Part shown: piece by piece, positions 36,855-56,639 of the stretch
How positions within the stretch are numbered: the stretch's first letter is position 1
How the letters are laid out: each line of letters starts with the position of its first letter
Assembly: GCA_009836625.1 (NCBI GenBank)
Contig: VXVC01000003.1
Coordinates: forward strand, 17,218 to 81,217
Source of the DNA: Holophagales bacterium
GTDB taxonomy: Bacteria; Acidobacteriota; Thermoanaerobaculia; Multivoradales; Multivoraceae
Reading direction: 5' to 3'
DNA length: 64,000 bases
Notes under the pieces: generated by a model
Told to the model about the DNA's origin: nothing
The model's input: only the letters and a program-made list of their open reading frames with translations
Database searches by the model: none
Translations under genes and position numbers: made by a program

Positions 36855-36858
36855 TCCG

Positions 36859-37323: not shown

Positions 37324-37328
37324 CGGAC

Positions 37329-38045
37329 CTATCTGCCGGGCGCCGTGCCGTCCTGCACCTTGGGGCCGTCGAGCACTCCGGGTGGGAACGGCTTGCCGAT
37401 CCACTCGCTCGTCAGCCGCGGTGGTGGCCGCCCGTCGCCGGCGTTGCCCGGCCTGAGCTGGATCAGTTCGCTGGTGAAGTACCAGTCGCCGACATCCTGC
37501 TGGCCGTTGAAGACGCGCTTCGCGGGACCGGGCGTGGCACTGTAAACACCCAGGATCGGCCCGACGACGGGGCCTTCACCCTCTTCCTCGTTCGGCGGAG
37601 GCACGGCCGTCATCGATCCGCCGCCGGCGGCCGCGACGGCCGCCGCGTTGGTCGCCGGCTGGGTGCCGCCTGTCTGGTTGCCGCGCTGGCCGGCGTTGCT
37701 CGGCCCCCCCTGCATCAGCAGGCCCCAGCGGCCGTCCTCGGCCATCGGATTCGGCCACAGTTGGCGAATCGCCCGCGGCTCTACTTCGACGAGTTCCTCG
37801 AGCGCCGTCGGTAGGCGTCCCTGACGTACGCGGAAGATGCGGATCGCCTCGGCGTACTGCAAGCCGCGGAAGATGAGTTCGGCCTCCTTCTGTCGCTGCG
37901 CCCAACTGCTCCAGTAGGGCAGCGCGGCGGCGACCGCGATGTTCATCACCGTGATCAGGATGGCCAGGGCGACCAGGTTGTAGCCGGCCTCGGCTGAGTC
38001 GTGCCGGCGCCGCTCGCCGCGGCGCCTGCGGTCACCAGTTGGCAT
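37329..38045 (-). CDS. Minor pseudopilin-like protein lacking Glu5 (GspK/PilX-like)
   Basis: Prepilin site AG|YNLVAL followed by a hydrophobic helix; KEAELIFRG.QY..AI, P..LEEL, GVYS; last pilin of the operon. Confidence 0.75.
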   Translation of the reverse strand: MPTGDRRRRGERRRHDSAEAGYNLVALAILITVMNIAVAAALPYWSSWAQRQKEAELIFRGLQYAEAIRIFRVRQGRLPTALEELVEVEPRAIRQLWPNPMAEDGRWGLLMQGGPSNAGQRGNQTGGTQPATNAAAVAAAGGGSMTAVPPPNEEEGEGPVVGPILGVYSATPGPAKRVFNGQQDVGDWYFTSELIQLRPGNAGDGRPPPRLTSEWIGKPFPPGVLDGPKVQDGTAPGR

Positions 38046-38481
38046 AGGCCTCCCCGTTCAGCGAGTTCTCCTCCGAGCCGGAGTGGACGTCCTCGACTCC
38101 CGGATCTCCGAACGGCGACAGGTCGGTCTCGGCCCAGGGGTCTTCGTCGGCTGATGAAGGGAACTCGGCCAGCACTTCGACCCAGGTTTCGGTGCTGCGG
38201 GTAATCGGGTCGGGAGGTATGGCCCGCAGGTACTCCTGCTCGACGAGAGCCTGAAGGCTCGGCGGATAGTGGCCCTTGTCGGCGTAGTGCTGCTCGATCG
38301 CGTCGCGCATGACACGGAGGTTCTGCTTGAGAGCCGCCTCCTGGGCCCGCCGGGGCGCGTTCTTGAGGAGCGGCACGGCGACGGCGGCCAGGATTCCGAT
38401 GATCGCCATGACGATGATGAGTTCCAGCAGCGACATGCCACCCTGGGATCTTGGGCGCTGGGCCCGGATGCGTTCGTTCAT
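38032..38481 (-). CDS. Pseudopilin, GspG/OxpG-like
   Basis: QGG|MSLLELIIVMAIIGILAAVAVP; YP.SL..LV, IPPDPIT, DVHSGS. Confidence 0.9.
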   Translation of the reverse strand: MNERIRAQRPRSQGGMSLLELIIVMAIIGILAAVAVPLLKNAPRRAQEAALKQNLRVMRDAIEQHYADKGHYPPSLQALVEQEYLRAIPPDPITRSTETWVEVLAEFPSSADEDPWAETDLSPFGDPGVEDVHSGSEENSLNGEAYANW

Positions 38482-38482
38482 T

Positions 38483-38953
38483 TCACCACTCCCGGTAGCG
38501 GACCCGGTTCAGGCCGACCCCGTTGCTCAGGGAGTAGACGTCGTAGACGTTCTCGCCTCCCCAGGAACGGTCGTCCGGGTCATCCTGGTAGCTCAGGAGG
38601 CCCCACTCCGCCTCGCCCGTCATCGGGTCGACGGGGATGCGGCGCAGGAAACGGATCTCGCCCTCGACCTGGCCGATGAGCTGGATCGGCTCCACCAGGT
38701 TCTCGAGTTCGCCCGGATAGCCGTCGGTGCCGATCTCGATCGGGATGAGCCCCACGTCGCTGTAGCGCTTGTGCTCGTCGATCGCATTGCGCATCTGGCG
38801 GAGGTGGGAGCGCAGTTCGGCTTCCTTGATTCGCTTGTTCGTGTAGGTCGCGGTCGGCAGGGCGACGGCAGCCAGGACCAGCATCACGGCGCACACCGTG
38901 ACCAGCTCGACCAGCGTGTAGCCGGCCCGCCGCCACGCGCCGGTGGTCTTCAT
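38483..38953 (-). CDS. Pseudopilin, GspG-like
   Basis: AG|YTLVELVTVCAVMLVLA; GYP..LE.LV, FLRRIPVDPMTG, VYDVYS. Confidence 0.9.
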   Translation of the reverse strand: MKTTGAWRRAGYTLVELVTVCAVMLVLAAVALPTATYTNKRIKEAELRSHLRQMRNAIDEHKRYSDVGLIPIEIGTDGYPGELENLVEPIQLIGQVEGEIRFLRRIPVDPMTGEAEWGLLSYQDDPDDRSWGGENVYDVYSLSNGVGLNRVRYREW

Positions 38954-41370
38954 GCGACCGTCTCCGGCCGCTCACGATCCAGACTTTCGCCGTCCCGGAT
39001 CTCGATCTCGAGCGGCTCAACGATGGGCGAGGCAATCACCTCGAGAGCCGGACCTTTGGGTCTGGCCTGTTCGACGGCGATCGTCGCCGTGCCGGGACCT
39101 GTGGCCCGCACCTCGAGCGCCAGCAGACGTCCCCTGCCGGCTACGCCCGGCCGCTCGCCCAGCCGGCTGAGGCCGACGACGACCATGCCCGGGGTCGAGT
39201 CGTCGGTCATCAGCGAGATCTCCTCCTCGCCGCCCAGGAAGGACCCCGCCCGCACCGCCGTGACTTCGATCAGCGACGGGTTGAAGCGCAGCCGCAACGG
39301 CAGGTGGGAGAGCGGCGCCGTGGACCGGACGTCGAGCCGCACCTCGAAACTGTCGCCGACACTGGCACGGAGCGCTTCGGGGGCGAACGTCAGCTCGACT
39401 CCGGCGGTGGAGCGGGCCGCCGCTTCCTGGAATGCTGCCGGCACGATGATCTGCGGCGAACCGGGGGCGGGCGCGGAATCAAGCAGACCCGCGTTGCGCG
39501 GCGGATTGCTGGGCGGCGGTACGAGCTCGACGCCCAGCGGCGGTCCGTCGTCTTCCTCACCCGGTGACTGCCCGCCCTCCGGCGCCGCGTCGCGCAGGCC
39601 CGGCGGCAGACGTTCCTGGAGTTCGTCGCGGGCACCGCCTTCGGCTTGCGGTTCGTCGAAGGGGCCGTCGACGCCGGAGTCGACCCGCGGGCTCGAACCG
39701 CGGTAGACGACGTTGCTCTCCGTGCCGACCCAGATGGGCGCGAGGTCCTCCTCCCGGATGTCCGCGCGCCGGATGATGTGGGGGGTCAGGGTCAGCACGA
39801 TGTCGGTGCGTTCGTTGTCCGTCGAGCGCCGGGAGAAGAGGCGCCCCAGCACAGGGATCTCGGACAGCCCGGGGATGCCGCTCTGGCTGTTCGTCTCCGA
39901 CGTGCGGATCAGGCCGGCCAGGAAGTTCGTCTCGCCGTCGCGCAGCCGAATGCTGGTGTTGATGTTGCGGCTGCCGATGATCGGCTGGCTCTCGATCTGG
40001 CCGCTGATGTTGCTGACCTCGATGCTGAGATCGAGCGACACCTCTTCGTTGTGATGCACCCGCGGCGTGATGTCGACCTCGATGCCGACGTTCTGGTACT
40101 GGTAGGAGGTGATCGGCACGATGTTGCTGCCCGCCGTGTTCGCAGTGTTGAAGCTGGTGACCGGGATCGGCACCCGGTCGCCGATCGAGAAGGACGCCTC
40201 TTCGCCTTCGGTGATCCGCACCTGCGGTTTGGCCAGGGTCTGGGCGTCGGTCGCGTTCTTCACGAAGTCGAACAGGAAACCAGGAACGGTCAGCACCCAG
40301 TTGTTCTGATTCAGGGATTCCACGTCCGACATCCTGAGCGGAACCTCCTCGCCGCCAATGTCGAGGCGGATGCCGAGACTGGTCGCGTCCAGCCGGAGGC
40401 CGAGTTGCTGCAGCTTGTTCGTGTTGATCTGCAGCAGTTCGACGTCGACGACGACCTCGGCCTTCGCCTTGTCGTTCTGCTCGATCAGCCGCTCCGCGAT
40501 CTTGACCTTCTCCACGCTGTCCATCATGGCGATCGCGTTCAGCCGTTCGTTCGTCGCGATGAACCTCGTGTTCAGCAGGCTGCGCAGGATGGTCATCACG
40601 TCACTCACGTCCGAGTTCGAGAGAAAGAAGGTCTGGATGATGCGATCCTCGAACCGCTGCCGGTTCTGCTGCGTGTCCTGGAGGATCATGATCGTCTGTT
40701 CGTCGAGCACCCGGTAGAAGTGGCCGAGGCTGTGCATCAGGATCTCGAGTCCTTCGATCGCCGTCACGTCGCGCAACTCGATGCCTTCGGGCCCGACCGG
40801 CGCGTCGCGCAGCCTGGTGTCGAAGACGATATTGATCCCGAAGGCCTGCCCGATCGCCCGGTAGACCTCCATGAACGTCGCGTTCGGGAAATCGAAGCTG
40901 ACCGGCTCGTCGGATAGCGGATTGAGCGTCGGCGGCATCGGTTCCGCGGCGCGGGCGTCGTCCTTCATCTGGGAGATCGTCCTGGGCTGGAGGCCGCTGG
41001 TCTCGATCTTCGTCCGCAGCTTCTCGAGTTCGGTCAGGGCGTACTGGTTGGTCGGATCGAGCTGCACGGCTCGCTGCATCTCGAGCATCGCGTCCCGATC
41101 GCGGCCGGCCTCCTGCAGCTTCCGGCCCTCCTCGAAGTGGGCGTGAGCGGCCTGGGTCCTGGCTCGCAGCAGGCCAGCCCGGTAGCGGAGATCCGCCGGA
41201 TCCTGTGTGACCAGTTCCATGTAGCGCAGAACGGCGGTATCCCAGTCGCCCGTGAGCTCCGCGTGCTGCGCCTCCCGGAAGCCCCGGTAGCCACTGCAGG
41301 ACGCGAGGATCACGAGCAGCGCCAGTCCCAGCGAGAGAGCGTGCCGCCGTCGTCGATTGTGTTCTTTCAT
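38950..41370 (-). CDS. Lipoprotein secretin (GspD/PilQ family) with N-terminal TPR-like helices and C-terminal cohesin-like domain
   Basis: Lipobox ILASC; N domains; core motifs AEVVVDVELL, LAKPQVRITEGEEA, VGIEVDITP, LRDGET, IPGLSEIPVLGRLF, LTPHII; Pro-rich linker; cohesin-like VGDSFEV.L.V...LRFNP..IEV..V.AGSFL. Confidence 0.92.
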   Translation of the reverse strand: MKEHNRRRRHALSLGLALLVILASCSGYRGFREAQHAELTGDWDTAVLRYMELVTQDPADLRYRAGLLRARTQAAHAHFEEGRKLQEAGRDRDAMLEMQRAVQLDPTNQYALTELEKLRTKIETSGLQPRTISQMKDDARAAEPMPPTLNPLSDEPVSFDFPNATFMEVYRAIGQAFGINIVFDTRLRDAPVGPEGIELRDVTAIEGLEILMHSLGHFYRVLDEQTIMILQDTQQNRQRFEDRIIQTFFLSNSDVSDVMTILRSLLNTRFIATNERLNAIAMMDSVEKVKIAERLIEQNDKAKAEVVVDVELLQINTNKLQQLGLRLDATSLGIRLDIGGEEVPLRMSDVESLNQNNWVLTVPGFLFDFVKNATDAQTLAKPQVRITEGEEASFSIGDRVPIPVTSFNTANTAGSNIVPITSYQYQNVGIEVDITPRVHHNEEVSLDLSIEVSNISGQIESQPIIGSRNINTSIRLRDGETNFLAGLIRTSETNSQSGIPGLSEIPVLGRLFSRRSTDNERTDIVLTLTPHIIRRADIREEDLAPIWVGTESNVVYRGSSPRVDSGVDGPFDEPQAEGGARDELQERLPPGLRDAAPEGGQSPGEEDDGPPLGVELVPPPSNPPRNAGLLDSAPAPGSPQIIVPAAFQEAAARSTAGVELTFAPEALRASVGDSFEVRLDVRSTAPLSHLPLRLRFNPSLIEVTAVRAGSFLGGEEEISLMTDDSTPGMVVVGLSRLGERPGVAGRGRLLALEVRATGPGTATIAVEQARPKGPALEVIASPIVEPLEIEIRDGESLDRERPETVA

Positions 41371-41383
41371 GTGGTTCAGATCC

Positions 41384-41989
41384 TTAGCTGCCGCTCGGAC
41401 GGCCGCCGATGGCGAGCCGCACCGGCTGTTCGTCCGGGAAACCCACGAAGAGCAGATCGACCGACTCGTAGCCGATGTTCTGCACTTCGAACTTGTCCTT
41501 GACGAGGTCGCCCTCGAGTGCGTTGAAGATGGACTTGTCGGCGTCGACGAAGACCGCGATCGGATTGTCGCTGCGTCCGAAAGACCCGATGTAGAAGACG
41601 TCGACCGGCGGTGGCCTGGGTCCGAGCGGCTCCGGCGCGGGCGGGTCCCGAATGACGGGTGGCGCCGGCGTCTCCGGGATGGCGGGCTGCAACGGCTCGG
41701 GGGCCGGAGGCGCCGCGGGCTCGCCGGTTGCCTCAGGCGCGGGCCGGGTTCCGAAGGACCAGGGATCCCGTGAGGGGCGGCTGGGCGGTGGCGGCTGGTC
41801 GAGGGTGTAAGGAGCGAGCTCGACGACGTCGATCGTGGTCGAACGCAGGTCGGCCGCGGTCGTGCGGGTGAAGCCGGGCCCGCCCCCGAACGACGGCAGG
41901 TATCGCCACGCGGCGACCACCACGACGATGCCGAGCAGGCCCAGCAGCAGCGGGTTGGGGCGGTTGGAGCTGGCCCGGGCCGCGCTCAT
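41384..41989 (-). CDS. PilP/GspC-like accessory protein
   Basis: One N-terminal TM, RDPWSF motif, Pro-rich linker, C-terminal YIG...A.F...EGD.V...F.V..I beta domain; sits between PilO-like and secretin genes. Confidence 0.65.
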   Translation of the reverse strand: MSAARASSNRPNPLLLGLLGIVVVVAAWRYLPSFGGGPGFTRTTAADLRSTTIDVVELAPYTLDQPPPPSRPSRDPWSFGTRPAPEATGEPAAPPAPEPLQPAIPETPAPPVIRDPPAPEPLGPRPPPVDVFYIGSFGRSDNPIAVFVDADKSIFNALEGDLVKDKFEVQNIGYESVDLLFVGFPDEQPVRLAIGGRPSGS

Positions 41990-42567
41990 GCGCCTGCCTC
42001 CTGCCGGGCAGTCCTGGACTCGTCGCCGGAGAACAGGGTCGAAAGCCGGAGATCGATGCGCAGGTTCGGCGTGGCCTCGCTCAGGCTGATCGACTCGAGG
42101 GCCACGAAGGTGTCCGTGACCTCGAGCAGGTTGACCAGCCCCCGCAGCTGGCTGTAGTTCCCCTCGACCGTGAACACGATCGACTTCTCGACCAGGCCGT
42201 ACTGCTCCAGCGTCGCTTCCGGGTAGGAGATCGAACTGGGACCAAATCCCGAGCGGTCGGCCAGTTCCTTGACCTCGCCGATCAGGTCGGTCAGCCGTTC
42301 GCGCTCGGTCGCGAAGCCGTCGCGGTACAGGGTTCGCACCTGGCTGCGGGTCGCCTCGACCGTCGTGACCTGGCCCTCGCGGCGGGCTACCTCCTGGGTG
42401 GCGCGCGTGCGCAGGTTCTGGACCTGGGCGATCTCGTCCTCGAGCGCCTGGAAGCGACCGGCGTAGACGCCGCGGTAGGTGGACAGCAGAGCCGCGTTGA
42501 AGACGCACAGGCCCGCGCCGACCCAGAACCAGATACGCAGCCGCCAGCCGCGCCGCCGCCGTCTCAC
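41986..42567 (-). CDS. PilO/GspM-like protein
   Basis: N-terminal TM, coiled coil, VEGNYSQLRGLVNLLE ferredoxin-like segment; operon position. Confidence 0.75.
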   Translation of the reverse strand: MRRRRRGWRLRIWFWVGAGLCVFNAALLSTYRGVYAGRFQALEDEIAQVQNLRTRATQEVARREGQVTTVEATRSQVRTLYRDGFATERERLTDLIGEVKELADRSGFGPSSISYPEATLEQYGLVEKSIVFTVEGNYSQLRGLVNLLEVTDTFVALESISLSEATPNLRIDLRLSTLFSGDESRTARQEAGA

Positions 42568-43226
42568 GGCCCCTCCTCCGCGGGCGCCGCGGCGCTGGTC
42601 GCCGGGGTTTCCGCGGCGTTGCCGGGGGTGTCGCCAGGCAGGTAGACGACCGCGATCGTGAAGTCCAGCGGGCCGGCGTCCTGCCGGCTCTCGTGGAGCA
42701 GCTTGGGATCGTCGAAGGCGGGATGCTCGAACAGGGCGTCGATCAGGTCGAGCAGACCTTGGTCGTCGCGGGCTTCCCCGGTCAGGTCGAGGACCACCCG
42801 GGAGCGGTCACCGGTTCCGAGCTCCGCGCGCCGCCGCCGGTTCCGGTCGCCGCGCTCCGGCGCCAGGCTTCGCAAGCGCGTGTTCCACGGCAGCACCTGC
42901 TCGATGTCGTTGAAGAGTTGCCCCCAGGGGAAGCGCCGGTCCGCGATGCGCTCGTTCAGGAAGGCGACTTCGCGGTTCTGCCCCTCCAGGTCGAGCCGCG
43001 CCAGTTCCGCGCTCAACCGGTCGAGTTCCGTCTGGTCTCCGGCCAGTTGCTCCCGCAGCCCGGCAAGTTCGGCGCGGGCGTCGGCCGAGCCGGTGAGGTA
43101 GCCCCAGTACAGCACCGCGTTCAGTGTCAGCAGGGCGAGGCCCAGCGCCCACAGCAGGGCGGTCAGCCGGCGCCAGGGGCGGCGGTTGACGAACGGTCGG
43201 GCGGCGAGGTTCAGGAACCTGCTCAC
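42564..43226 (-). CDS. PilN-like protein
   Basis: LNLAARPF (INL-type motif), TM, coiled coil, PW..LF..IE..LP, LTGEA. Confidence 0.78.
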   Translation of the reverse strand: MSRFLNLAARPFVNRRPWRRLTALLWALGLALLTLNAVLYWGYLTGSADARAELAGLREQLAGDQTELDRLSAELARLDLEGQNREVAFLNERIADRRFPWGQLFNDIEQVLPWNTRLRSLAPERGDRNRRRRAELGTGDRSRVVLDLTGEARDDQGLLDLIDALFEHPAFDDPKLLHESRQDAGPLDFTIAVVYLPGDTPGNAAETPATSAAAPAEEGP

Positions 43227-44198
43227 GTTCTCACCGCGAGCGAGGCGCCCAGCATCGGCAGGGCGCGGTCGAGTTCGAGGTCTCCGGCCTCGGATCCGCC
43301 GCCGGAGGTCGTGTTGTCGTCGAGAACGCGAGCCGGCAGCCCCAGAGCCTCTTCGAGCCGTTCGCGCCAGGTATCCCGGCAGGCCTCGGCCGCCAGCATC
43401 AGGACGTGCTCGGGCAGGTCGGCTGCGGCGCCGAACAGGCCGCGCTCCTCGATGAAGCTCCTGGTCAGCCGCAACTCGCGCACTGCCAGCCGCGAAGCGA
43501 CCGAGGGAGGGAGTGCCGGATCGAAGTTCTTGTAGCGGTAGAGGGCGGGGCCCTCCTCCGTGTGCGCCAGGAGGGAGTAACCGTCGCGGTGGGCAAGCAC
43601 AAGCAGGAACGCGCCGCCAACGTCGTGCACCTGCCGGATGCCGTTCACCGCGCCGAGGCTCGCGTTCGTCACCATGCCGATGTGAATTCCGGCACGGCGG
43701 AAAGAATCCTCGATCTGGGCCAGCACACGCTCCACGCCGAAGGCAATCAGAAAACGGGTGGACGCGCCGCCGCCGTTGCCGGTCCGTGCGCCGCGTACGC
43801 GCAACTCCTCCACGCGGAAGGGCACCTGCTTGCGCAACTTGAAGCGAAGGGCCTCCTGGCGATGTTGCGGGCTCCGGGGCACGTCCTCGAGTTCCGCGAA
43901 CGTCAGCCGCAGCCAGCGGTCCGGGAGGACGAGTGCGGCGGCCGTGACCTGAGTTCCGGTGGCGGTGTCGGCGGCCTGCTGGAGTTCAGCGACCACGTCG
44001 TGGAACTGAGCGGGCTCTCGCAACGGCCCGCCCAGCGCCCCTTCCTGGAACGTGTCGGCCGGCAGCTCGCGTCGCCGGACGGCCTGCAACTCCGGAGTGG
44101 GCCCGTTCTGGCGCACGAAGTGGGCCAGAACGAGCTCGCGCTCGTCGAGCAGGAACACCGACGCCGGTCCCCGAGGGTCGTCGAGGCCGGCAAGGCGT

Positions 44199-45883
<1,685 letters not shown>

Positions 45884-45884
<1 letters not shown>

Positions 45885-47122
45885 CAGCCCTGCACCTGTC
45901 CCAGTACGCTGAAGAGCGGCAGGTACATCGAGAGCACGAGCATCGCGATCGTGCAACCCATGACGACCAGCATCACGGGTTCCACCAGTGAGAGGAGCCG
46001 CTCGGTTCGGGTTTCGACATCCTCGTCGAGGAAGTCGGAAACGCTGTTCACCATCTCGTCCAGCGCTCCGGTCGCCTCACCTACCTTGACCATGTCGATC
46101 GCCAGGTCGGTGAACACTCCCGATTCCCCAAGCGCCACGTGGAAGGCCTCGCCCTCGCGGATACGTGGTCCGAGCGCCACCGCCCGCTCGTGAAGGAACC
46201 GGTTCGTGACGGCCGACGTAGCGGTTTCGAGCGCCGCGGCGAGTGGCAGGCCGCCGTGCAGCAGCGTGGCCAGGGAGCGGCAGAACTCGGACAGCGCGAA
46301 GCGGTGGAAGATCGGCCCGATGATGGGCAACCGCAGTTTCAGGCGGTCGACCAGGGCGCCGATCCGGCCGCTCTTGCCGACTCGCCAGGTCGCCCAGCCC
46401 GCCACCACCGCTGCGGCGATGAGCACCAGGGTGGTCGGACTGCGCAGCACCTGGGACAGACCGAGGAGGAGCTGCGTGATCCAGGGCAGATCGAGGTCGA
46501 GCGCCACGTAGAACTCTTCGAAGCGGGGCATGACGAAGAACATCATCACCGCCACGATGACGACGGACAGGCAGATGAGGAGCGCCGGGTAGAAGAACGC
46601 GCTGACCACTCGCTTGCGGGAGCTCGTGACGAGCTTCAACTGGCGAACATACCTGCGGATGACCCGTTCCAGGCCGCCGCTCTGCTCCCCCGCCTTGAGC
46701 ATCGAGCTGTAGATCGGCGGGAACGAGTTGCCGGCCGCGGCAAACGCCTCGGAGAGCTCCTCGCCGCTCTCGACGCGGTCCCGGATCTCGCTCAGCGCCT
46801 CCTTGAAGCCGGCGTGTCGCTGTCGCTCGCATAGCAGGTCCAGGCACTGGAGCAGGGGCAGTCCCGCGCTGAGCAGGCCCGCCAACTGCTGGTTGAAGAT
46901 CAGGAAGTCCTGTCCCGGGATCGCTTTGCGGCCCCCGTCACCGGTGGCCGAACCCGCGCCCAGAAGCGACCCGAAGAGGTGCTGCAGGCCGCGGCGCCTG
47001 ATCTCGAAGACGTACAGCCCGCGGCGCTCGATGTCTCGCCGCGCGGTGCGCAGATCCGGCGCCTCGTGGATCTGCTCCACGATGCGACCGTCGGCGGTGC
47101 CAAGCCGGCAGACGAACTGCAT
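45884..47122 (-). CDS. GspF/PilC inner-membrane platform protein
   Basis: QLAGLLSAGLPL, AGEQSGGL, YPA, VGEATGAL, EPVML, MYLPLF. Confidence 0.95.
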
Positions 47123-47135
47123 GCCCCACCCGCTC

Positions 47136-47879
47136 CTAGTCGCCGGCGGCCAGGCCGTCTTCACGGGGAGACCGGACGGTCACGGCGACCACCAGGCCAC
47201 TGGCGTCGGATCCGGGGTAGGGGAGCGCCAGGACCAGCGGCTTTCCGACCCACACGTTCAGGTGGCCGTTGAAGACACGCTCGTCGAGGACGGCGCTGCG
47301 GCTCCGCTCGATCTCGACCCCATACAGCTTGAGCCGGCGGTCGAGCAGCACGGTTCCGACGCGGAAACCGAGCCGGAACTCGGTGCCGATTTCGTAGCGG
47401 ACGTTCTCGCCCTCCGTCGCTTCGAACTGGCCCTCGCCGAGCAGTCGGTAGCTCGTGAAGGCCAGCCAGTTGCCCAACTCGTCGGTGAGCTGCGCCGGCA
47501 GTTCGGAACGCGGGTCGCCGCTGCCGCGACGCGACGCCTCGAGGATGAAGATCTCGAACTCGATCTGACGGCGGGGGTGGTCGAAGTCACGCAGCAGGGC
47601 GAGCAGGTGTTCGAGCACGCTGCTCCGGTCCCTCAGCACCAGGGTGTTCGTCGCCCGCTGCAGTTCGATCGTTCCCTGGGGCGACATCTCGTTCTGCATC
47701 CACTCCAGGGCGTCGTCGGCACGCTGATGCTGGAGGGTGAAGGCGTGGCGGATCTGGGTTTCGGCCTCCTGCTGCGCGTTGCCGGGCTGGGCGAAGGTCG
47801 GCTGCGGCGTGCCGGCGGCAGCCAGGAGCGCTGCAACCAGGAACGCTGGGGCGGCCAGGGCCGGGCGAAGGGTGCTCAC
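47136..47879 (-). CDS. Exported 247-aa secretin-like protein (one N domain plus abbreviated secretin core)
   Basis: GTG 47879 overlaps the anti-sigma stop; signal peptide; Secretin_N-like AFTLQH...SPQGTI...TNTLVLRD...LL..FDHP followed by RQIEFEIFILEA and TEGE.....IG, mirroring the full secretin. Confidence 0.65.
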   Translation of the reverse strand: MSTLRPALAAPAFLVAALLAAAGTPQPTFAQPGNAQQEAETQIRHAFTLQHQRADDALEWMQNEMSPQGTIELQRATNTLVLRDRSSVLEHLLALLRDFDHPRRQIEFEIFILEASRRGSGDPRSELPAQLTDELGNWLAFTSYRLLGEGQFEATEGENVRYEIGTEFRLGFRVGTVLLDRRLKLYGVEIERSRSAVLDERVFNGHLNVWVGKPLVLALPYPGSDASGLVVAVTVRSPREDGLAAGD

Positions 47880-48415
47880 GGTGCCACCACCAGGACTACG
47901 TCGAGGCCGTCGCTGTCGTTGCCGGGAAGCTGGTAGACGTGCAGCGGTTCGTCGCCGAGCGGCTCGACCAACGGCGCCATCGCGATGTGGTCGGGCAGCA
48001 CCGGCGGGACGTCCGCGAGCTCCTCCGCTGGCGGCGCGGTCTTCGGCCACAGCAGGAAACTCAAACCGAGCGCCGCGGCCGCGGCGCCTGCGGCCAGTAC
48101 CGACGCCACGGGCAGGCGCCGGCGGGCGCTCCGCGCCTCGTTCAGCCGCCTCTCGGTTGCCCGTCCGTCGAGCTCGAGCCGTACGCGCTGGCGGATCGCG
48201 TCGATGTCGCCCGCACTGACCTCGTCGTAGTAGCCGCTGAACAGCAGCACCGGATCGACATCGAGCGAGGCCGCGCGGCAGCGTTCGCAGTCCTCGCGGT
48301 GACGGAGAGCCTCGTTCCAGGCGGCGTCCACCGTCGCGCCGCCGACCTCCGGACTCCGTTCGGCCCGCTCGCGTTCGCGCAGGAGGGCAGCCCAGTCGGG
48401 GCACAGAGAGGTCAT
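47876..48415 (-). CDS. Zinc-binding (ZAS) single-pass anti-sigma factor
   Basis: HREDCERC (HxxxCxxC), one TM (VASVLAAGAAAAALGLSFLLW), short periplasmic tail; ATGA overlap with the ECF sigma. Confidence 0.8.
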   Translation of the reverse strand: MTSLCPDWAALLRERERAERSPEVGGATVDAAWNEALRHREDCERCRAASLDVDPVLLFSGYYDEVSAGDIDAIRQRVRLELDGRATERRLNEARSARRRLPVASVLAAGAAAAALGLSFLLWPKTAPPAEELADVPPVLPDHIAMAPLVEPLGDEPLHVYQLPGNDSDGLDVVLVVAP

Positions 48416-49119
48416 GGGCGCTCCTTTCGTCCGGAACGGCTCCCGGCTCTTTGTGCGTACTCGGGGTATCGCCTGAGCAACTCCTCGCGAAGCAGCTTGC
48501 GGCTGTTGAACAGGTGGTTGCGGACGGTCGAGGGACGGATGCCGAGGATGCCCGCGATCTCCTTGCCGGCCAACCCCTCCATCTCGCGCAGCACGAACAC
48601 CGCGCGCTGCTTCTCGCTCAAAGTGGACGCGAGTTCGTGGAACACGGCCCGGACTTCACTGGCGGAGAGCGAATCGAGTTGCCGCGCGGAGACTTCGCCC
48701 CGTTGGTGCTCGTGGTGAAACTGGAAGCTCTGCAGCGAGCGGAGACGGGAGGAGCGGGAGCGCAGGTGGTCGATGGCGAGGTTCGAGACGATCCGGTAGA
48801 TCCAGGTGTTCGGGCTGTAGCGGCGGTCAAAGCGATGCCGCGAGTTCCAAATCCGCAGAAAGGAGATCTGGACGATGTCGCGGGCGTCTTCCCGGTCGCC
48901 CACCAGCCGGGTGGCCAGTTGCACCAGGCGGGTCGTCTTGCGTCTCATCAGTTCGTCGAGCGCGAGATCGTCGTCGCGGCGAAGGCCCTCCAGGAGTTCG
49001 GCGTCGGACGCGTCGGCCCACGCCACCTGACGCTGGTGGCGGGAGTACGCGATCGTGAGACCGCTCCGTGGAGGATCTTCGCGTGGCGGTTCCATGCGGA
49101 TGGCTTGCGCGGATCTCAT
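48412..49119 (-). CDS. ECF RNA polymerase sigma factor
   Basis: DARDIVQISF, TWIYRIVSNLAIDHLR, LSEKQRAVFVLREMEG...EIA.ILG...STVRNHL. Start may be a later Met. Confidence 0.9.
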   Translation of the reverse strand: MRSAQAIRMEPPREDPPRSGLTIAYSRHQRQVAWADASDAELLEGLRRDDDLALDELMRRKTTRLVQLATRLVGDREDARDIVQISFLRIWNSRHRFDRRYSPNTWIYRIVSNLAIDHLRSRSSRLRSLQSFQFHHEHQRGEVSARQLDSLSASEVRAVFHELASTLSEKQRAVFVLREMEGLAGKEIAGILGIRPSTVRNHLFNSRKLLREELLRRYPEYAQRAGSRSGRKERP

Positions 49120-49127
49120 GCCTCGCT

Positions 49128-49159
49128 GTTGATACGGAGGCCCGGGGCAAAGCGTCCAA
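49128..49159 (-). promoter_or_regulatory. Candidate ECF promoter, TTGGAC-N17-CGTATCAAC
   Basis: Directly upstream of the sigma gene; the 9-mer CGTATCAAC also occurs at 20376-20368 in the other ECF locus. Confidence 0.4.
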
Positions 49160-49261
49160 GAGGCCGCGCTTCGGGAGATGGAGAGCCCTCCGCCAGCAGG
49201 CGCCGGAATTATACTCGTGCGTCAATACGGCCCTGACCGGCCCGTCTCCGGCCGTCACCTT

Positions 49262-50539
49262 ATGTGGTTCCTCTACCAGCTCGCGATGGCGGCAGGGTTG
49301 GGCGTGGCGGCCCCGGTGCTGCTGGCCCGGCGCGGTCGGCACTACCTGCCGACGCTGCCCGCCCGGCTGGGACGCTTGCCGGAGGCCCGGGGGACCAGCC
49401 CGCTGTGGCTGCACGCCGCGTCGGTGGGCGAGGCCGGCGTCGCGGCGACGCTGGCGCGGGCCCTGCCGCCGGACCTCGACCTGGTGGTGACGACGGTGAC
49501 GCCCACCGGTCAGGCCGCGGCGGAGAAGCTCTTCGAGCCGCTGACCGCGGGCGGCAGAAGCGTGGTCGTCACGTACCTGCCGTTCGACCTGGGGTTGCTG
49601 GTCGGTCGTTTTCTGGATCGCTACGCGCCGCGCGGTCTGGTCCTGTTCGAGAGCGAACTCTGGCCCCTGCTGCTGCGGGACTGCCGCCGCCGGTCGATTC
49701 CCGTGGCCGTGCTCAACGCCCGCATCAGCGACCGCAGCTACGGGCGGATGAAGCGCGCCGGCCGTCTCTACCGGCGGTTCCTGCTCGACCCGCTGGGTCG
49801 CCTGGGCGCCCAGAGTCCGCAGGACGAGGAGCGCTTGCTGAGCCTGGGCGCGCGGCCTGCGCGCACCTCGCTGACCGGCAACCTGAAGTTCGATACCCCG
49901 GAACCGCTCCCGGTGGCCGGCCTGGAGCAGGCCCTGCGGGACCTCGCGGCGGATCGGCCGATCCTGGTCGCGGGCTCGACGATGCCCGGCGAAGAGCCGA
50001 TCGTCCTCGACGCCTTCGAACGACTGGGCCGCGAGGCGCTGCTGGTCCTGGCTCCCCGCCATCCGGAGCGCTTCGACGAGGTCTGGCGAGAGGTGGAGGC
50101 ACGCTCGCTGGCGGCGATGCGCCGGAGCCGGATTGTCGCGGCCGCGGGGGCGCTGCCGGCCTCGGCACCCAGGATCGTCCTCCTCGATTCCCTGGGCGAG
50201 CTGGCTTCGATCTACCGGCTGGCGTCGGCGGCGTTCATCGGCGGCACGCTCGTGCCGACCGGCGGCCACAACCCGATCGAGGCGGCGCGGTTCGGCGTGC
50301 CCGTGATCGTCGGCCCGTCGATGGAGAACTTCCGGCGCATCGCGCGCGACCTCGAGGCCGCGGACGGCCTGACCCTGGCGCCTGACGGCGAGGCATTGAC
50401 CGAAGCGTGGCGGCGCCTCCTGGACAGACCCGACGAAGCGGCGGAACAGGGCAGGCGCGGTCTGGCGATCGTCGACAGGAACCGGGGCGCGGTGAAGCGC
50501 TCGGTGGAACTCCTGAGCGAATTGGTGGACCTGAATTGA
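49262..50539 (+). CDS. waaA: 3-deoxy-D-manno-octulosonic acid (Kdo) transferase
   Basis: WLHAASVGE, TPTG, YLPFD, ESELWP, NARISDRS, GNLKFD, APRHPERF, GGHNPIE. Confidence 0.95.
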   Translation: MWFLYQLAMAAGLGVAAPVLLARRGRHYLPTLPARLGRLPEARGTSPLWLHAASVGEAGVAATLARALPPDLDLVVTTVTPTGQAAAEKLFEPLTAGGRSVVVTYLPFDLGLLVGRFLDRYAPRGLVLFESELWPLLLRDCRRRSIPVAVLNARISDRSYGRMKRAGRLYRRFLLDPLGRLGAQSPQDEERLLSLGARPARTSLTGNLKFDTPEPLPVAGLEQALRDLAADRPILVAGSTMPGEEPIVLDAFERLGREALLVLAPRHPERFDEVWREVEARSLAAMRRSRIVAAAGALPASAPRIVLLDSLGELASIYRLASAAFIGGTLVPTGGHNPIEAARFGVPVIVGPSMENFRRIARDLEAADGLTLAPDGEALTEAWRRLLDRPDEAAEQGRRGLAIVDRNRGAVKRSVELLSELVDLN

Positions 50540-53044: not shown

Positions 53045-56000
53045 TCAGCGGCCTGAGGCGGGCGCCGAGACCGGGCTGAACGGCGTCTCCGGACCGACCA
53101 CCCGCGTCAGCCACTCGGCGCGGTAGGCGTCGAGTTCCGGCGTTCGGGGATAGGCCTCGCCCGGCGCGAACGGGTAGCCGGACATCGCCTGGAAGGGCAG
53201 CGGCAGGTTGCTGTCCGCCTTCCAGGTGTTGCGGTCGGCGTCCTTGTCCCAGCCGAAGCTCTCGAGGAACACGGTGCGGACATGACCGGGCTTCGGCGCT
53301 GGCAGATCGCGGGCGTCGAACAGGACCCGGATCTCGTCGCCCGGTCCGATCACGACCTGCCGGTCGTCGACGGTGCCGAGTAGCTCGCGGACATCGCCGA
53401 AGCGGGTGTAGCGGCCGGGGAAAGGCAGCCAGGGCGACTCCGTGGTGGTGCGCTGGTAATCGAACAGGTGCGGGCCGTTGGGTGCTGGCCGTGTCGGCGC
53501 CGAGAATCCGCGGTCGGAGAGATCGGCGCTCGCCGGGTCCAGACGCGCCTGGATGACGACATCGTCGCCGTCGATGCCGCCCAGTTCGGTGCTCCAGGCG
53601 ATGCGGTCCCAATGCAGCCAGCGGGTGGTCACGATGCGGAGCTTGCGGGCGCCCGCCGGCAGCGGCGGCGTGTCGACGACCATCGCCTTCGTCTTGCCGG
53701 GCGGGAAGCCCATCGGATCGAGCAGCGTCCGCCAGCCGTCCCCGGTTTCGACTTCGAGCCGGGTCACGACCATCTCCAGGTCGCCGTGCTCCACCGCCTG
53801 GGCGATGGCGAGGTTCAGGCTCGCATCGGCGGGGAACACCCAGCCGTCAAGCCACAGCCGGACCGGTTTGCCGGGCGCTTCGCCGAGGTCGAAGGTGAAC
53901 GTCCAGGGCTCTGTGGCGTGGCCCTGGAAGCGCGAGCGTGAGTAGCCGTCGGCGTAGACCTCGTCGCGAGCGCGGACCCGTTCCGTCACGTCGCGGCCGC
54001 GGCCGTCGATGGCGTGCGCGACGGGCCGGACGACGGCACTCGAGACGATGTCGTCGGACGGCCTGCCGATGGGCCCCCGGCCCGGGACGATACGGAGGTT
54101 GCTTGCGACTTCCACGCCTTCGCGATGGTCGACCACCCAGAGCCGCACCCGGTCGATGTAGGCGGCCTCCCACAGCTCCTCGGTGATCCGCAGGTCATAG
54201 AACCCGTCGCGGGTCCGGGCTCCGTCGACTCGCACGAGCTCGTCCGGGTCGTAACTGTTCCAGACGCCGTCGGCGAGCGGCATGCCGAGCGGCGCGCCCC
54301 ACAGCAGGTCGGTGACGAAGGTGATCTTCTCGCCGTCCCAGGTGTACAGGAAGGGACAACTGCCCTTGAGTACCTGTTCCTCGACGATCGTCTGGTTGCC
54401 GCCCGGGCTGAGCCGGTTCTGCGGCACGCCGTTTGCCCACACGACGCGGATCAGGTCGGGCCGGCGGCGGTTGCCGAGTCCGATATGGGTGATCGGTCGG
54501 TCGACCTCGAAGTACTGGTACGCGCGCTCCGATTTGACCTCGATCGTCGTGCCGCGTCCGAAGACGTTGTTCTTCTGGTTCCCCAGGTCGAGGCCGACCA
54601 GCCGGACACGCAGCCAGTTGTTCTCCGAACCGTCCAGGTTCTCGATGCGGTAGAGCCCGGTGGCGCCGGCAGCTACGAGATCCTGGTCGCCGTCGCCGTC
54701 CAGGTCGTCGGCCCGCACCGCGGTGAACCCGGCGTCGCGGGGCAATCCGGTGACCTGGGCGAGGCGGAACTCGAGCGCCGGGGAGCCGGAGTTCGAGGTC
54801 TGGGTCAGGATCCGAAGCTCGCCGTCGGCCACGAAGGCGAGATCGCGGCGGCCGTCGTTGTCCGCGTCCAGCAGGGCGAGATCCGTCGCGCCGGCGGGCA
54901 GGGCGATCGATTCGGAGGTCAGCGGGAAGGGGGTCACCGCCCCGTCCGCGTCCCGGCGCAGGATGTAGGTAGACTCGCCGGCGAGCAGAAACTCCGGCAG
55001 GCCGTCAGCGTCGAGGTCGGCGGTGCGGACGACCCGCACCGGCGATCCGGTGACGAGCCCCTGGGTTGCGGGTTCCTCGCTGCGCAGCCTGCCCAGGAGC
55101 CTTCCGAGGACACTCCGGCTCGGCGCCGGCGGAATGCGTTCCGCGAACCGCCCCTGGCGCAGGTTGTCGAGCCAGAGGACTCCCTCGTCGTGAGCGAGCA
55201 GCAGGTCGGTGTCGCCGTCGCGATCGGCGTCGGTGGCCTGGAGGTGGTGGTAGCTGCGCGCCTCGGCGTCGGGCAGCGCCCTCGATCCCAGGGCCTCGAG
55301 AGGACCGTCGAAGACGCCCTCGCCCGAGACGTTGCGCAGCAGGTCGGGCGCGCCGTCCGCCGGCACCACGGCCAGGTCGAGGTCGCCGTCGCTGTCGAAG
55401 TCGATCAGGTCGGCGGCGGTCGCGTCCATCCCGTTCGCCAGGAACCGGTCGCTAGCGTCCGTGAATTCCGGCGTGTCGTCGACCTGCCAGACGGCCAGGG
55501 GGTCGCCGACCGCGATCAGGTCGAGTCTGCGGTCATTGTCGGCGTCGCCGACCAGGAGGGCGCGGGCGCCGGTTTCCGGCGCTAAAGCAGGGGCTGCGTA
55601 GCCCCCGGCGGCACGCCGTAACTCCAGTCGTGTGGCCGGGTCGCCGCCGACGGCCGCCGCGACCCGCGCGATGTCGGGCCGGTCGTCGCTGTCGAAGTCG
55701 GCGACCTCCAGGGCCCGGTTCGGAGTAGGGGCATTGTCGACTCGGGTCGCCCGGAAGCGGACTGGCAATGCGTTGCCGAAGTCTTCGATCGGCGACTCGT
55801 CCACGAAGCGCTCGACCGGAATGCCCCGGATGTTCGTGTAGACCTCGGCCAAACTGCTGTGCCAGCCCGGAGTCGCCAGCAGTACGTTTCGCAACCGGGG
55901 AGCGTAGGCGCGGGCGCGTTCCAGATCGTCCGTCTCCAGGGCGTCGAGCACCTCTTCGATGACGCGTTCGGCTGCCGGCTGCGCCTGCCAGAGGAGCTCG

Positions 56001-56581
56001 CGGATCCGCAGGTAGTCGTCGCTCGCGCGGCCCCGGTCGCCGTCTTCCAGCGCGGCGGCTCCGCTTAGAAGCAGGACGACCAGGTTGTCCGGCCTGAGCG
56101 CCCGCAGACGATCGACGGCGGCCCGGTGATCGGCCTTGGCTTCGGGACCGCTCATGATCTCGGCGTGCCGGAAGAGCGCGTACTGCACTTCGGGGTCGTC
56201 GGGCGCGGCGCGCGCCGCGCGGCGGTAGTCCGCCAGCGCTTCTTCGTTGCTGCCGGCGCCTCCCTGGAGAACGTCGGCGCGGACCAGCAGCAGATCGCCT
56301 CTGTTGCCGCCCAGTTCCACAGCCCGGTCGATGGCGGCGAGCGCCGCGTCCTTCCGGTCCTGCCGCAGCAGCGCGACGGCCAGGTTGGCGTGACCGAGGG
56401 GCTCGTCGGGCGCGAGTTCGATCAGTTCCAGGTAGGTGCTCTCGGCGTCGACTTCCCGCTCGTTCTCGAGTTGCGCGTAGCCGATACCGTGCAGCCGCAC
56501 CTGTTCCGCGGTCGGCTGCGCGGACGCCGCGGCCGGGGCGAGCGCGGCGAGGAGAACAAGGACGGGGAGGTTGCGAGGCAT
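53045..56581 (-). CDS. Large secreted TPR + FG-GAP + ASPIC/UnbV protein
   Basis: Signal peptide (AAASA-Q), TPRs, many DxDxDG loops, ASPIC HIGLG...VVWANG, then KGSCPFLYTWDG and a long C-terminal region ending LPF..M..YP. Confidence 0.88.
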   Translation of the reverse strand: MPRNLPVLVLLAALAPAAASAQPTAEQVRLHGIGYAQLENEREVDAESTYLELIELAPDEPLGHANLAVALLRQDRKDAALAAIDRAVELGGNRGDLLLVRADVLQGGAGSNEEALADYRRAARAAPDDPEVQYALFRHAEIMSGPEAKADHRAAVDRLRALRPDNLVVLLLSGAAALEDGDRGRASDDYLRIRELLWQAQPAAERVIEEVLDALETDDLERARAYAPRLRNVLLATPGWHSSLAEVYTNIRGIPVERFVDESPIEDFGNALPVRFRATRVDNAPTPNRALEVADFDSDDRPDIARVAAAVGGDPATRLELRRAAGGYAAPALAPETGARALLVGDADNDRRLDLIAVGDPLAVWQVDDTPEFTDASDRFLANGMDATAADLIDFDSDGDLDLAVVPADGAPDLLRNVSGEGVFDGPLEALGSRALPDAEARSYHHLQATDADRDGDTDLLLAHDEGVLWLDNLRQGRFAERIPPAPSRSVLGRLLGRLRSEEPATQGLVTGSPVRVVRTADLDADGLPEFLLAGESTYILRRDADGAVTPFPLTSESIALPAGATDLALLDADNDGRRDLAFVADGELRILTQTSNSGSPALEFRLAQVTGLPRDAGFTAVRADDLDGDGDQDLVAAGATGLYRIENLDGSENNWLRVRLVGLDLGNQKNNVFGRGTTIEVKSERAYQYFEVDRPITHIGLGNRRRPDLIRVVWANGVPQNRLSPGGNQTIVEEQVLKGSCPFLYTWDGEKITFVTDLLWGAPLGMPLADGVWNSYDPDELVRVDGARTRDGFYDLRITEELWEAAYIDRVRLWVVDHREGVEVASNLRIVPGRGPIGRPSDDIVSSAVVRPVAHAIDGRGRDVTERVRARDEVYADGYSRSRFQGHATEPWTFTFDLGEAPGKPVRLWLDGWVFPADASLNLAIAQAVEHGDLEMVVTRLEVETGDGWRTLLDPMGFPPGKTKAMVVDTPPLPAGARKLRIVTTRWLHWDRIAWSTELGGIDGDDVVIQARLDPASADLSDRGFSAPTRPAPNGPHLFDYQRTTTESPWLPFPGRYTRFGDVRELLGTVDDRQVVIGPGDEIRVLFDARDLPAPKPGHVRTVFLESFGWDKDADRNTWKADSNLPLPFQAMSGYPFAPGEAYPRTPELDAYRAEWLTRVVGPETPFSPVSAPASGR

Positions 56582-56639
56582 GACTTGCGGCGACCGTTGG
56601 CTGTAGGGCAACGCAATCCTACGACTCGACACTAGAGTA

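Follow-up and report, generated by a model that had tools for sequence, protein, structure and literature searches.

Signaling of the FecI/FecR/FecA type couples an ECF sigma factor and a membrane anti-sigma factor to an outer-membrane protein. In another arrangement the periplasmic protein RseB binds the periplasmic part of the anti-sigma factor RseA, and protects it against initial cleavage by protease. For most groups of ECF sigma factors no input is known, to our knowledge, and secretins are described only as large channels for export.

In the Pseudomonas Fox system the secretin-like signaling domain of the receptor binds the anti-sigma factor's C-terminal domain when there is no signal, and protects it from proteolysis (PMC11637429). 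In the PUMA3 system of Pseudomonas aeruginosa (VreA-VreI-VreR) the sigma factor induces the adjoining Hxc type II secretion cluster; VreA comprises an STN signaling domain and a TolA/TonB-like C-domain, and is mostly soluble in the periplasm (PMC2729926). The ECF re-classification paper gives RseA, RseB and RseC as the conserved context of ECF02, and ECF32/HrpL as an ECF sigma factor lying beside type III secretion genes that it controls (PMC7826278). The word secretin does not occur in the main text of that paper, nor in the available part of one supplement. A search of the full-text literature found no description of a module of sigma factor, zinc-motif anti-sigma factor and cut-down secretin; subscription journals could hold one.

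We have analyzed a module of this composition in a window of 64,000 nucleotides, i.e., the whole stretch of DNA studied, from a Holophagales bacterium of the Acidobacteriota. Three minus-strand ORFs of 235, 179 and 247 aa (the last counted from its GTG) encode an ECF sigma factor, an anti-sigma factor and a protein that we call the mini-secretin. They are followed on the same strand by a run in the order pilC-pilB-pilMNOP-secretin-pseudopilins. The features are:

49208-49213, minus strand: conserved TATAAT box between the sigma gene and kdtA (in sequence invariant in nine same-genus loci)
49133-49158, minus strand: TGGAC-N17-CGTA, a candidate promoter of ECF type lying 14 nt upstream of the ATG of the sigma gene
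48412-49119, minus strand: ECF (group IV) sigma factor, 235 aa (Pfam and NCBIfam matches)
47876-48415, minus strand: membrane anti-sigma factor, 179 aa (zinc motif, hydrophobic span, alignment with relatives)
47136-47879, minus strand: mini-secretin, 247 aa (P0001; family profile, structure model)
47574-47756, minus strand: Secretin_N (ring-building) domain of the mini-secretin, residues 42-102 (profile and structural matches)
47139-47573, minus strand: reduced secretin-core-like beta domain of the mini-secretin, residues 103-247 (C-domain model, structural matches)
45884-47122, minus strand: GspF/PilC platform protein (T2SSF 193.8 bits; GspF model 306 bits, below the equivalog cut-off)
44199-45956, minus strand: GspE/PilB assembly ATPase, ORF coordinates with the start codon uncertain (T2SSE 431.6 bits, MshEN 59.9 bits)
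41384-44230, minus strand: PilM-, PilN-, PilO/GspM- and PilP-like alignment genes (weak matches and conserved order), individually and in that order 43223-44230, 42564-43226, 41986-42567 and 41384-about 42040
38950-41370, minus strand: full-length secretin, 806 aa (Secretin 147.2 bits)
37329-38953, minus strand: pseudopilin/pilin genes closing the operon (N_methyl, weak GspG/PilA-type and phmmer matches)

The original prediction of three overlapping genes leading, after a 13-nt gap, into a pilC/gspF operon agrees with the ORF coordinates. The sigma and anti-sigma genes overlap in an ATGA at 48412-48415, and the GTG start of the mini-secretin overlaps the anti-sigma stop in a GTGA at 47876-47879. 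The mini-secretin stop codon, TAG, occupies 47136-47138 and the next ATG, that of pilC, lies at 47122. The module had been drawn to 49159, which is 40 nt past the first in-frame sigma start at 49119; there is no in-frame start further up, and the extra bases are therefore promoter region and not gene. Among the alignment genes the PilN and GspM matches are weak (20.9 and 23.9 bits), and the names PilM and PilP are assigned from gene position only. Their order is kept in 31 loci searched by phmmer with the window proteins, and pseudopilin genes recur in the same loci; the pilin ORF at 38483-38953 matches N_methyl at 21.1 bits and GspG/PilA-type models weakly. The full-length secretin has an N-terminal TPR region followed by Secretin_N and Secretin domains and a weak cohesin-like C-terminus, and is the only PF00263 match in its genome.

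The assignment of the sigma factor is clear from Pfam matches to Sigma70_r2 (62 bits, residues 62-123), Sigma70_r4_2 (52.9 bits, residues 160-210) and Sigma70_ECF (25.1 bits), and from TIGR02937 sigma70-ECF at 98.1 bits against a cut-off of 42.9. A Pfam scan found no match to the r3 or r1 domains, leaving the sigma-2 and sigma-4 domains only.

The anti-sigma factor carries an H-x3-C-x2-C motif (HREDCERC) in its N-terminal cytoplasmic anti-sigma domain, one hydrophobic span at about residues 103-123, and a periplasmic tail of some 56 aa (124-179). Alignment A2 joins it to 38 homologous ORFs, each situated between a sigma gene and a mini-secretin gene. The zinc motif is present in 33 of these 38 relatives, and 33 passed a crude transmembrane test. 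The window protein matches no Pfam family at E≤0.1 and NCBIfam 'antisigma' weakly (E 0.0019); the relatives L065 and L069, which were scanned as well, match zf-HC2 at 30.4 and 29.1 bits. The tail ends, as in the relatives, in a conserved two-strand hairpin at the very C-terminus, with the consensus ..VY.L..turn..VVMIFDE.LDL across the alignment. The window protein terminates in VVLVVAP, without the DE.LDL end found in most of the others.

The family of the third protein is real: at E≤1e-3 it comprises 346 representative clusters (180 at E≤1e-10), and its members match end to end, nearly all of them at 230-280 aa. Relatives in the ESM Atlas fall only in 'hypothetical protein' clusters of Acidobacteriota and one labeled Aminicenantota. 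The single Secretin_N domain proposed for the protein is confirmed: in the window it scores 28.1 bits over residues 46-105, 0.1 bit below the Pfam cut-off, and 114 of 115 family members match it. The family profile matches solved structures of PilQ and GspD in the last of their N domains (E 2e-10 to 2e-8), and NCBIfam secretin models match residues 22-117 only. None of the 115 members matches PF00263, the Pfam Secretin family, at E≤1, and reading of the window protein and of the family consensus bears out the reported absence of the IPGL..IP.LG.LF stretch. Export, which had been proposed together with the 247-aa length, is a reading of the hydrophobic N-terminus ending TFA/QP; the length itself is correct.

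The relationship of the C-terminal part to secretins was originally argued from four segments aligned by eye with the secretin of the operon. Pairwise comparison alone shows no homology, since the best BLASTP match between the two proteins, which is the second segment, has a non-significant E of 0.36. Profile-profile alignment of the family with 32 Acidobacteriota secretins gave a probability of 82% and E 1e-5 over 162 colinear columns. The first and second segments are reproduced exactly in this alignment, the third comes up only when the alignment is extended under relaxed settings and with low confidence, and the fourth is absent. With the C-domain alone hhalign gave a probability of 18% (P 0.0013).

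The predicted structure bears out the proposed likeness to the secretin core. The whole mini-secretin was modeled with pLDDT 87.3 and pTM 0.77, and the C-domain (m8d4d1d5cb19b, 145 aa) with pLDDT 90.2 and pTM 0.83; the model is of a monomer, and may misrepresent a protein that oligomerizes. The C-domain fold comprises one strand, one helix and seven strands. In a VIA-align search with this model ranks 1-12 are all secretin cores (Z 10.4-7.7), superposing with rmsd 3.3-6.2 over 112-121 of the 145 residues at 10-23% identity, and the first non-secretin match has Z 6.3. Ten of the 11 Foldseek matches at E≤1e-3 are secretins, with RcpA at the top (E 1.6e-4). The N domain superposes on 4e9j with Z 11.4 and an rmsd of 1.4 Å over 64 residues, and the whole protein on secretin protomers with rmsd 7-9 Å. 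As modeled, the mini-secretin is the last secretin N domain joined to a core of about half the normal length, from which the long hairpins and the IPGL...LF segment are missing. Like GspD, PilQ, InvG, phage pIV and RcpA it has Secretin_N ahead of a beta core of two layers, but its core has 145 residues as against about 230-275, and it is without the PF00263 signature, the long gate and lip hairpins and the S domain.

These properties bear on whether the protein forms an oligomeric ring or small channel in the outer membrane, acting as a FecA-like surface transducer whose occupancy or gating is read by the anti-sigma tail, and not as a soluble partner in the periplasm. As in secretin protomers a ring-building N domain directly precedes the core, and the closest small relatives, RcpA and phage pIV, form rings according to the titles of their structure entries. 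Below the secretins, a second group of structural matches is made up of 8-stranded outer-membrane barrels (the OprF N-domain at Z 5.8, NspA at 5.6 and a designed transmembrane barrel at 5.5). However, the core is about half of any solved one, with 142 residues aligning to spans of 230-275, and the missing PF00263 match and IPGL...LF segment argue in the same direction. Reading of the sequence also found neither a lipobox nor a pilotin-binding S domain. We regard a ring or channel of this kind as unlikely.

Does the mini-secretin contact the anti-sigma factor? The periplasmic tail of the anti-sigma factor was modeled with the mini-secretin, as the original prediction had suggested, and a contact was predicted with ipSAE values of 0.74, 0.53 and 0.73 (median 0.73), as against 0.00 for the best of three controls. 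The prediction comes from one structure-prediction job with unpaired alignments of our own; the partner was modeled at pLDDT 56-64, and at least 66% of contacts are shared between the runs. Among solved complexes 116 of 157 reach the ipSAE mark, as do 2 of 215 mismatched pairs; with our own alignments in use these counts hold only roughly. Mini-secretin residues 203-210 and 213-220 face anti-sigma residues 147-154 and 170-178 in the predicted interface, conserved elements on both sides. The model indicates that the mini-secretin probably holds the outer tail of the anti-sigma factor.

If so, the module resembles the Fec and Fox systems in having an ECF sigma factor, a single-pass anti-sigma factor and a third envelope protein with a secretin-related domain that, in the model, touches the periplasmic C-terminus of the anti-sigma factor. 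There are several differences. The mini-secretin is no TonB-dependent transducer, with no match to TonB-receptor or STN domains in Pfam or NCBIfam; its N domain is Secretin_N and not STN, and the predicted contact is made mainly through the beta core. The anti-sigma factor is short and carries a zinc motif and a tail of about 56 aa, whereas FecR-type proteins have an STN-like domain of their own; no FecR-family match was found in Pfam or NCBIfam for the window protein. The genes run in the order sigma, anti-sigma, partner, and overlap. Judged by these domain assignments, the module is not Fec-type by membership, lacking the TonB-dependent transducer, the STN domain and the FecR-type anti-sigma factor.

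The likeness to RseA/RseB is that of a periplasmic protein lying on the periplasmic part of an anti-sigma factor and, as we propose here, shielding it, but the folds are unrelated and no homology was detected. PUMA3 shares an ECF system whose third protein is cut down, receptor-like and without a barrel, and which is followed directly by a type II secretion cluster. It differs in gene order (vreA-vreI-vreR) and in phylum, and the description of VreA sets it apart from a Secretin_N domain with a reduced secretin core. ECF32/HrpL is similarly encoded beside secretion-apparatus genes, their control by the module being here a proposal, but those sigma factors use two-component or other inputs and no secretin-derived partner, as that paper describes them (PMC7826278).

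On balance we lean toward reading the triplet as a three-component ECF module, in which the sigma factor is held by a single-pass zinc-motif anti-sigma factor, and a secretin-derived partner with a putative signal peptide binds the anti-sigma hairpin, shields the anti-sigma factor and so sets the expression of the machine. As we propose, the mini-secretin would bind the C-terminal periplasmic hairpin by the addition of strands at the edge of its beta-sheet. While it is bound, the anti-sigma factor would stay intact and the sigma factor sequestered. By analogy with the described systems, an envelope event that removed or re-arranged the mini-secretin would expose the tail to periplasmic proteolysis, and the freed sigma factor may then transcribe its own operon. 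Since the operon is unbroken, the module would set the expression of the only type II secretion or type IV pilus-like machine of the genome, for which it is a candidate regulator. The predicted interaction is small and testable, between a tail of about 56 aa and a protein of about 215 aa.

We have also examined the occurrence of the module across the phylum. The C-domain profile finds members in 146 of 401 Acidobacteriota genomes and 112 of 228 genera, including every sampled genome of the class of the window, and some genomes carry two triplets. The conserved linkage to sigma and anti-sigma genes that was originally expected is found. Of the 60 loci examined, which represent about 50 families, 59 have a same-strand ECF sigma gene just upstream of the mini-secretin, and the sole exception is cut by the contig end. 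These are 39 of the first 40 loci and all of 20 further ones, of which 8 are second copies and 12 are distant members. An anti-sigma ORF lies between the two in 38 of 39 loci, and in 15 of the 20 further loci. Full-length conservation over 346 clusters and 146 of the 401 genomes, a stable length, confident models and the conserved open frame and linkage leave almost no room for the notion that the protein is a functionless, decaying remnant of a duplicated secretin, despite a length below that of any secretin and the missing signature motifs; the conservation data contradict it.

The secretion operon follows the triplet directly in 31 of the 60 loci, with a gap from the mini-secretin stop to pilC of median 8 nt (range -1 to 120). 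In the other 29 (9 of the first 40 and all 20 further loci) no secretion genes occur in the fetched flanks, and among the loci examined the mini-secretin was never seen beside the machine without a sigma gene. The mini-secretin thus travels with the sigma/anti-sigma pair and not with the machine, since the triplet also stands alone. These data bear directly on whether the protein might be a structural or assembly accessory of the machine (such as a ring acting as spacer in the periplasm, a chaperone for the secretin or a cap), its adjacency to the sigma gene reflecting no more than a shared operon. The position directly before pilC in 31 loci is what such an accessory would show, and secretin N domains are known to stack with each other (PMC11637429). 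Against this, the 29 triplets without flanking secretion genes keep sigma and anti-sigma genes, the mini-secretin is not found with the machine alone, its first codon shares bases with the anti-sigma stop, the complex model places it on the anti-sigma tail, and some genomes have two triplets. We consider an accessory role improbable.

The analysis partly supports a relay resembling cell-surface signaling with a secretin-derived partner. Of the original proposal of a Fec-like relay that reports secretin assembly or envelope state, the relay is favored by the contact model and Fec membership is contradicted. Secretin assembly as the signal is weakened, since 29 of the 60 triplets have no adjoining secretion genes and the module is not tied to one machine. 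A secretin-derived domain has apparently been recruited as the third, sensing part of a sigma/anti-sigma switch, in roughly a third of the sampled genomes of a phylum that is abundant and little studied experimentally. A channel protomer cut down to a stand-alone domain is also relevant to the question of how the cores of secretins fold and come together. More tentatively, and as a possibility that we rate below an even chance by some distance, the triplets may constitute an undescribed phylum-wide signaling class. A miniaturized secretin protomer would there serve as sensor, mimicking or co-assembling with secretins or inserting at the outer membrane, and would pass this on to the ECF sigma factor by its grip on, or release of, the anti-sigma hairpin; the class would have multiplied within genomes and been wired to varied targets, including the machine in the window.

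How might the operon be transcribed? The motif TGGAC-N17-CGTA occurs once in the window, where 0.15 matches are expected (at least one in 13 of 100 shuffles). It falls within a block that is nearly invariant in nine same-genus loci while the flanks diverge, and the motif recurs in much the same position in 3 of 39 further loci (L033, L036 and L039). It may act as an ECF promoter. Phylum-wide searches upstream of the sigma genes, whose starts are approximate, gave no common promoter: a regular expression matched 6 of 39 loci (3.7 ± 1.9 in shuffles), and the best 4-mer pair occurred in 10 sequences (7-11 in shuffles). No regulon can be read from the genome, because TTGGAC-N17-CGTA has three matches as against five for a reversed control.

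The original reading placed pilC under the same transcription as the sigma genes. In keeping with this, we saw neither a separate promoter for pilC nor a terminator, and the gap has a median of 8 nt in the 31 loci; an internal promoter is possible. A scan of 36500-49600 for sigma-70 promoters and terminators was uninformative, with no promoter sites and four terminator-like sites where 5.5 are expected. In metatranscriptome run X1 a 6281-nt contig, 90-95% alike, spans 45800-49398. Its support is weak, since a contig cannot prove a single transcript, and an RNA library may contain DNA. Runs X2, X3 and X7 gave short contigs over parts of genes only, the gaps between which carry no meaning.

No -35 partner was found for the TATAAT box in the sigma-kdtA intergenic region. 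The region of the box, GAGTATAATTC, is invariant in the nine same-genus loci.

The window, which has a G+C content of ~69%, contains a tight row of minus-strand genes running from 49119 down to ~37329:

48412-49119, minus strand: ECF sigma factor (Sigma70_r2, 62 bits; r4_2, 52.9 bits)
47876-48415, minus strand: anti-sigma factor of 179 aa, with an H-x3-C-x2-C motif (HREDCERC), a single hydrophobic span and a 56-aa tail
47136-47879, minus strand: mini-secretin of 247 aa, the third gene of the triplet
Rest of the row, after the mini-secretin, minus strand: GspF/PilC, GspE/PilB, PilM/N/O/P-like proteins, an 806-aa secretin and pseudopilins

The two gene overlaps, ATGA and GTGA, and the 13 nt that separate the mini-secretin gene from pilC are as the original prediction had them. 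Its layout also holds, but its upper bound of 49159 does not, lying 40 nt past the first start codon in frame. One PF00263 secretin and one mini-secretin are present in the genome. At its N-terminus the full secretin (38950-41370, minus strand) carries a TPR region, and at its C-terminus a weak cohesin-like match (PF00963, 16.7 bits, under the cut-off), a layout that is unusual for secretins; its N-terminus also weakly matches the NCBIfam model of the Myxococcus TraC lipoprotein. The pilB ORF as listed (44199-45956, minus strand) overlaps pilC by 73 nt; with an alternative ATG having one base in common with the pilC stop (TGATG; 45884-45886, minus strand), the junction would be tighter and the product 561 aa long.

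The mini-secretin is a member of a genuine family that is conserved. When 1.84 billion representatives were searched exhaustively with phmmer, 346 proteins reached E ≤ 1e-3 and 180 reached E ≤ 1e-10; with few exceptions they were 230-280 aa long and covered nearly the whole query. A word-indexed search gave 26 matches, named, where a name was given, as Acidobacteriota 'hypothetical protein'. The family alignment comprises 115 of 150 listed phmmer matches, fragments and partial matches having been excluded by eye. At E ≤ 1e-6 a profile of the C-domain (residues 103-247) matched 146 of 401 sampled Acidobacteriota genomes (a tally that takes in the unpublished genomes G024 and G152), 133 of 371 good-quality genomes and 112 of 228 genera, including all genomes sampled from the window's class; some genomes had two copies. 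True secretins were not matched by this profile in HMMER.

Secretin_N was matched in the N-terminal third of 114 of the 115 aligned proteins. In solved chains of PilQ and GspD, the family profile matched the final N domain at E = 2e-10 to 2e-8, extending into the first core strand. BLASTP of the mini-secretin against the operon's secretin was not significant (E = 0.36), and none of the 115 proteins matched PF00263 at E ≤ 1. Profile-profile comparison of the family with 32 secretins from related operons gave a probability of 82% (E = 1e-5) over 162 colinear columns. Four segments of the two proteins had earlier been paired by eye; the first two pairs were recovered in this alignment, the third only when it was extended under relaxed settings, and the fourth was absent. 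For the C-domain alone the probability was 18% (P = 0.0013), with the register unchanged. The mini-secretin is secretin-derived, yet by signature it is no secretin.

The AF2 model of the whole mini-secretin (pLDDT 87.3, pTM 0.77) gave secretins throughout its best 37 Foldseek matches (E = 1.5e-8 to 7e-6). Since the N domain alone might account for these, residues 103-247 were modeled separately from 41 sequences (pLDDT 90.2, pTM 0.83). On comparison of this model with 48,161 chains by VIA-align, ranks 1-12 were secretins, including GspD, PilQ, ExeD, InvG, pIV, XcpQ, RcpA and PulD (Z = 10.4-7.7, rmsd 3.3-6.2 Å over 112-121 residues, 10-23% identity), followed by a match at Z = 6.3. The predicted fold thus bears out the proposed likeness to the secretin core. 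The best Foldseek match of the C-domain model was RcpA (E = 1.6e-4). In solved secretin chains its 142 aligned residues span 230-275 residues, and therefore about half of the core is absent from the mini-secretin. By reading of the sequence, the IPGL...LF segment and the long hairpins are among what is absent, in agreement with the original prediction that the IPGL..IP.LG.LF motif and most long hairpins are lacking.

We examined 40 loci picked from ~110 full-length family matches, representing ~35 families and skipping unpublished genomes; neighboring genes were identified by phmmer with the window proteins as queries. The anticipated linkage to a sigma gene is conserved: in 39 of the 40 an ECF sigma gene lies upstream on the same strand, at 0.95-1.5 kb (2.7 kb in one case), and the remaining locus (L054) is cut by a contig end. 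In 31 of the 40 the mini-secretin runs directly into pilC-pilB-pilMNOP-secretin-pseudopilins, with a median projected gap from its stop to pilC of 8 nt (range -1 to 120). The other nine have unrelated neighbors, as judged by Pfam scans of 120 flanking ORFs, and all nine genomes carry at least two full secretins elsewhere. A further 20 loci, made up of eight second copies and 12 weak C-domain-profile matches, all had the sigma gene upstream, with an anti-sigma profile match between it and the mini-secretin in 15; neither pilC nor pilB was present in any of their fetched flanks. The sigma gene is kept and the machine is variable, which makes the triplet the unit that is conserved; its fusion to the machine is frequent, not obligatory. 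The second copies (L072-L079, in genomes G070, G304, G054, G364, G163, G388, G194 and G046) have no secretion genes beside them in the fetched stretches. That they are never so placed suggests that the triplet has been duplicated and re-wired.

An ORF between the sigma and mini-secretin genes was recovered at 38 of 39 loci (the exception being locus L041). H-x3-C-x2-C was present in 33 of these 38 ORFs, and 33 of 38 passed a crude transmembrane test. The order in their alignment is zinc motif, DP..LF motif and membrane span, then a variable linker followed by a P.vE element and, at the extreme C-terminus, a two-strand hairpin (..VY.L..turn..VVMIFDE.LDL), whose acidic DE.LDL tail closes most family members. 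The anti-sigma factors of the window and its genus (47876-47905, minus strand) end a few residues short, at VVLVVAP, and are without this tail. A contig from metatranscriptome run X1 has several short indels at 47781-47914, across the signal peptide of the mini-secretin and the final anti-sigma codons, and the overlap region is therefore a hot spot at which strains differ in length.

A complex of mini-secretin residues 31-247 and anti-sigma residues 124-179 was predicted using the two family alignments. The ipSAE values were 0.74, 0.53 and 0.73 (median 0.73), and the best of three controls gave 0.00. Of 157 solved complexes, 116 reach the ipSAE mark, versus 2 of 215 mismatched pairs, a calibration that is rough here because the alignments were our own. 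The partner had a pLDDT of 56-64, and contact agreement between runs was at least 66%. The lowest-error pairs join mini-secretin residues 204-209 and 215-218 to anti-sigma residues 147-153 and 173-175, placing the conserved LNL.L..P..LGLA hairpin of the former against the P.vE element and terminal strand of the latter. The model supports binding of the anti-sigma tail to the mini-secretin.

The nearest worked-out systems are cell-surface signaling and PUMA3. As described in PMC11637429, the secretin-like signaling domain of a cell-surface signaling receptor binds the anti-sigma factor's C-terminal domain, even in the absence of signal, and shields it from Prc. The mini-secretin might similarly cap the C-terminal hairpin of its anti-sigma factor; loss of the cap would lead to degradation of the anti-sigma factor and release of sigma, which would then drive transcription from a promoter upstream of its own gene. 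In the window's genome such transcription would take in the whole machine. We infer the proteolysis, the autoregulation and the signal alike. As close to half of the triplets examined are not beside a machine, secretin assembly is just one candidate signal; general outer-membrane or periplasmic state is an alternative candidate. The triplet appears to work like a three-component ECF relay, a known kind of system, but differs in its domains from both the Fec type and VreAIR (PUMA3) and is a member of neither. What may be new is an ECF/anti-sigma pair using a partner derived from the secretin core. Our full-text literature searches gave no description of such a pair, and a secretin-derived partner is absent from the main text and part of one supplement of the ECF re-classification paper.

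Across nine same-genus loci the sigma-kdtA intergenic region contains two invariant blocks with diverged flanks. The first, GAGTATAATTC, contains TATAAT at 49208-49213; the second, TTGGACGCTTTGCCCCGGGCCTCCGTATC, ends 14 nt ahead of the sigma ATG and holds the following feature:

49133-49158, within TTGGACGCTTTGCCCCGGGCCTCCGTATC: candidate ECF-like -35/-10 pair, TGGAC-N17-CGTA

We take this pair to resemble ECF promoters. It occurs once in the window (0.15 expected), and 3 of 39 other loci have it in the corresponding position; it is enriched neither across the phylum loci nor genome-wide. A scan gave no terminator-like site between the triplet and pilC. The contig from run X1, a sponge metatranscriptome, is 6281 nt long and 90-95% alike and covers 45800-49398, and two further studies yielded shorter contigs over portions of the sigma, mini-secretin and pilC genes; these contigs establish presence in RNA libraries, not one single transcript.

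Upstream of the kdtA-lpxK-like genes lies a 1195-aa ORF with a signal-like N-terminal sequence (53045-56632, minus strand). The kdtA/waaA-like ORF is listed from 49178 on the plus strand, but its sequence is kept in the nine same-genus loci only beyond the stretch 49178-49262, from the ATG that precedes WFLYQLAMAAG. This ATG, ~84 nt into the ORF as listed, is therefore the probable start, which would widen the sigma-kdtA intergenic region to ~140 nt.
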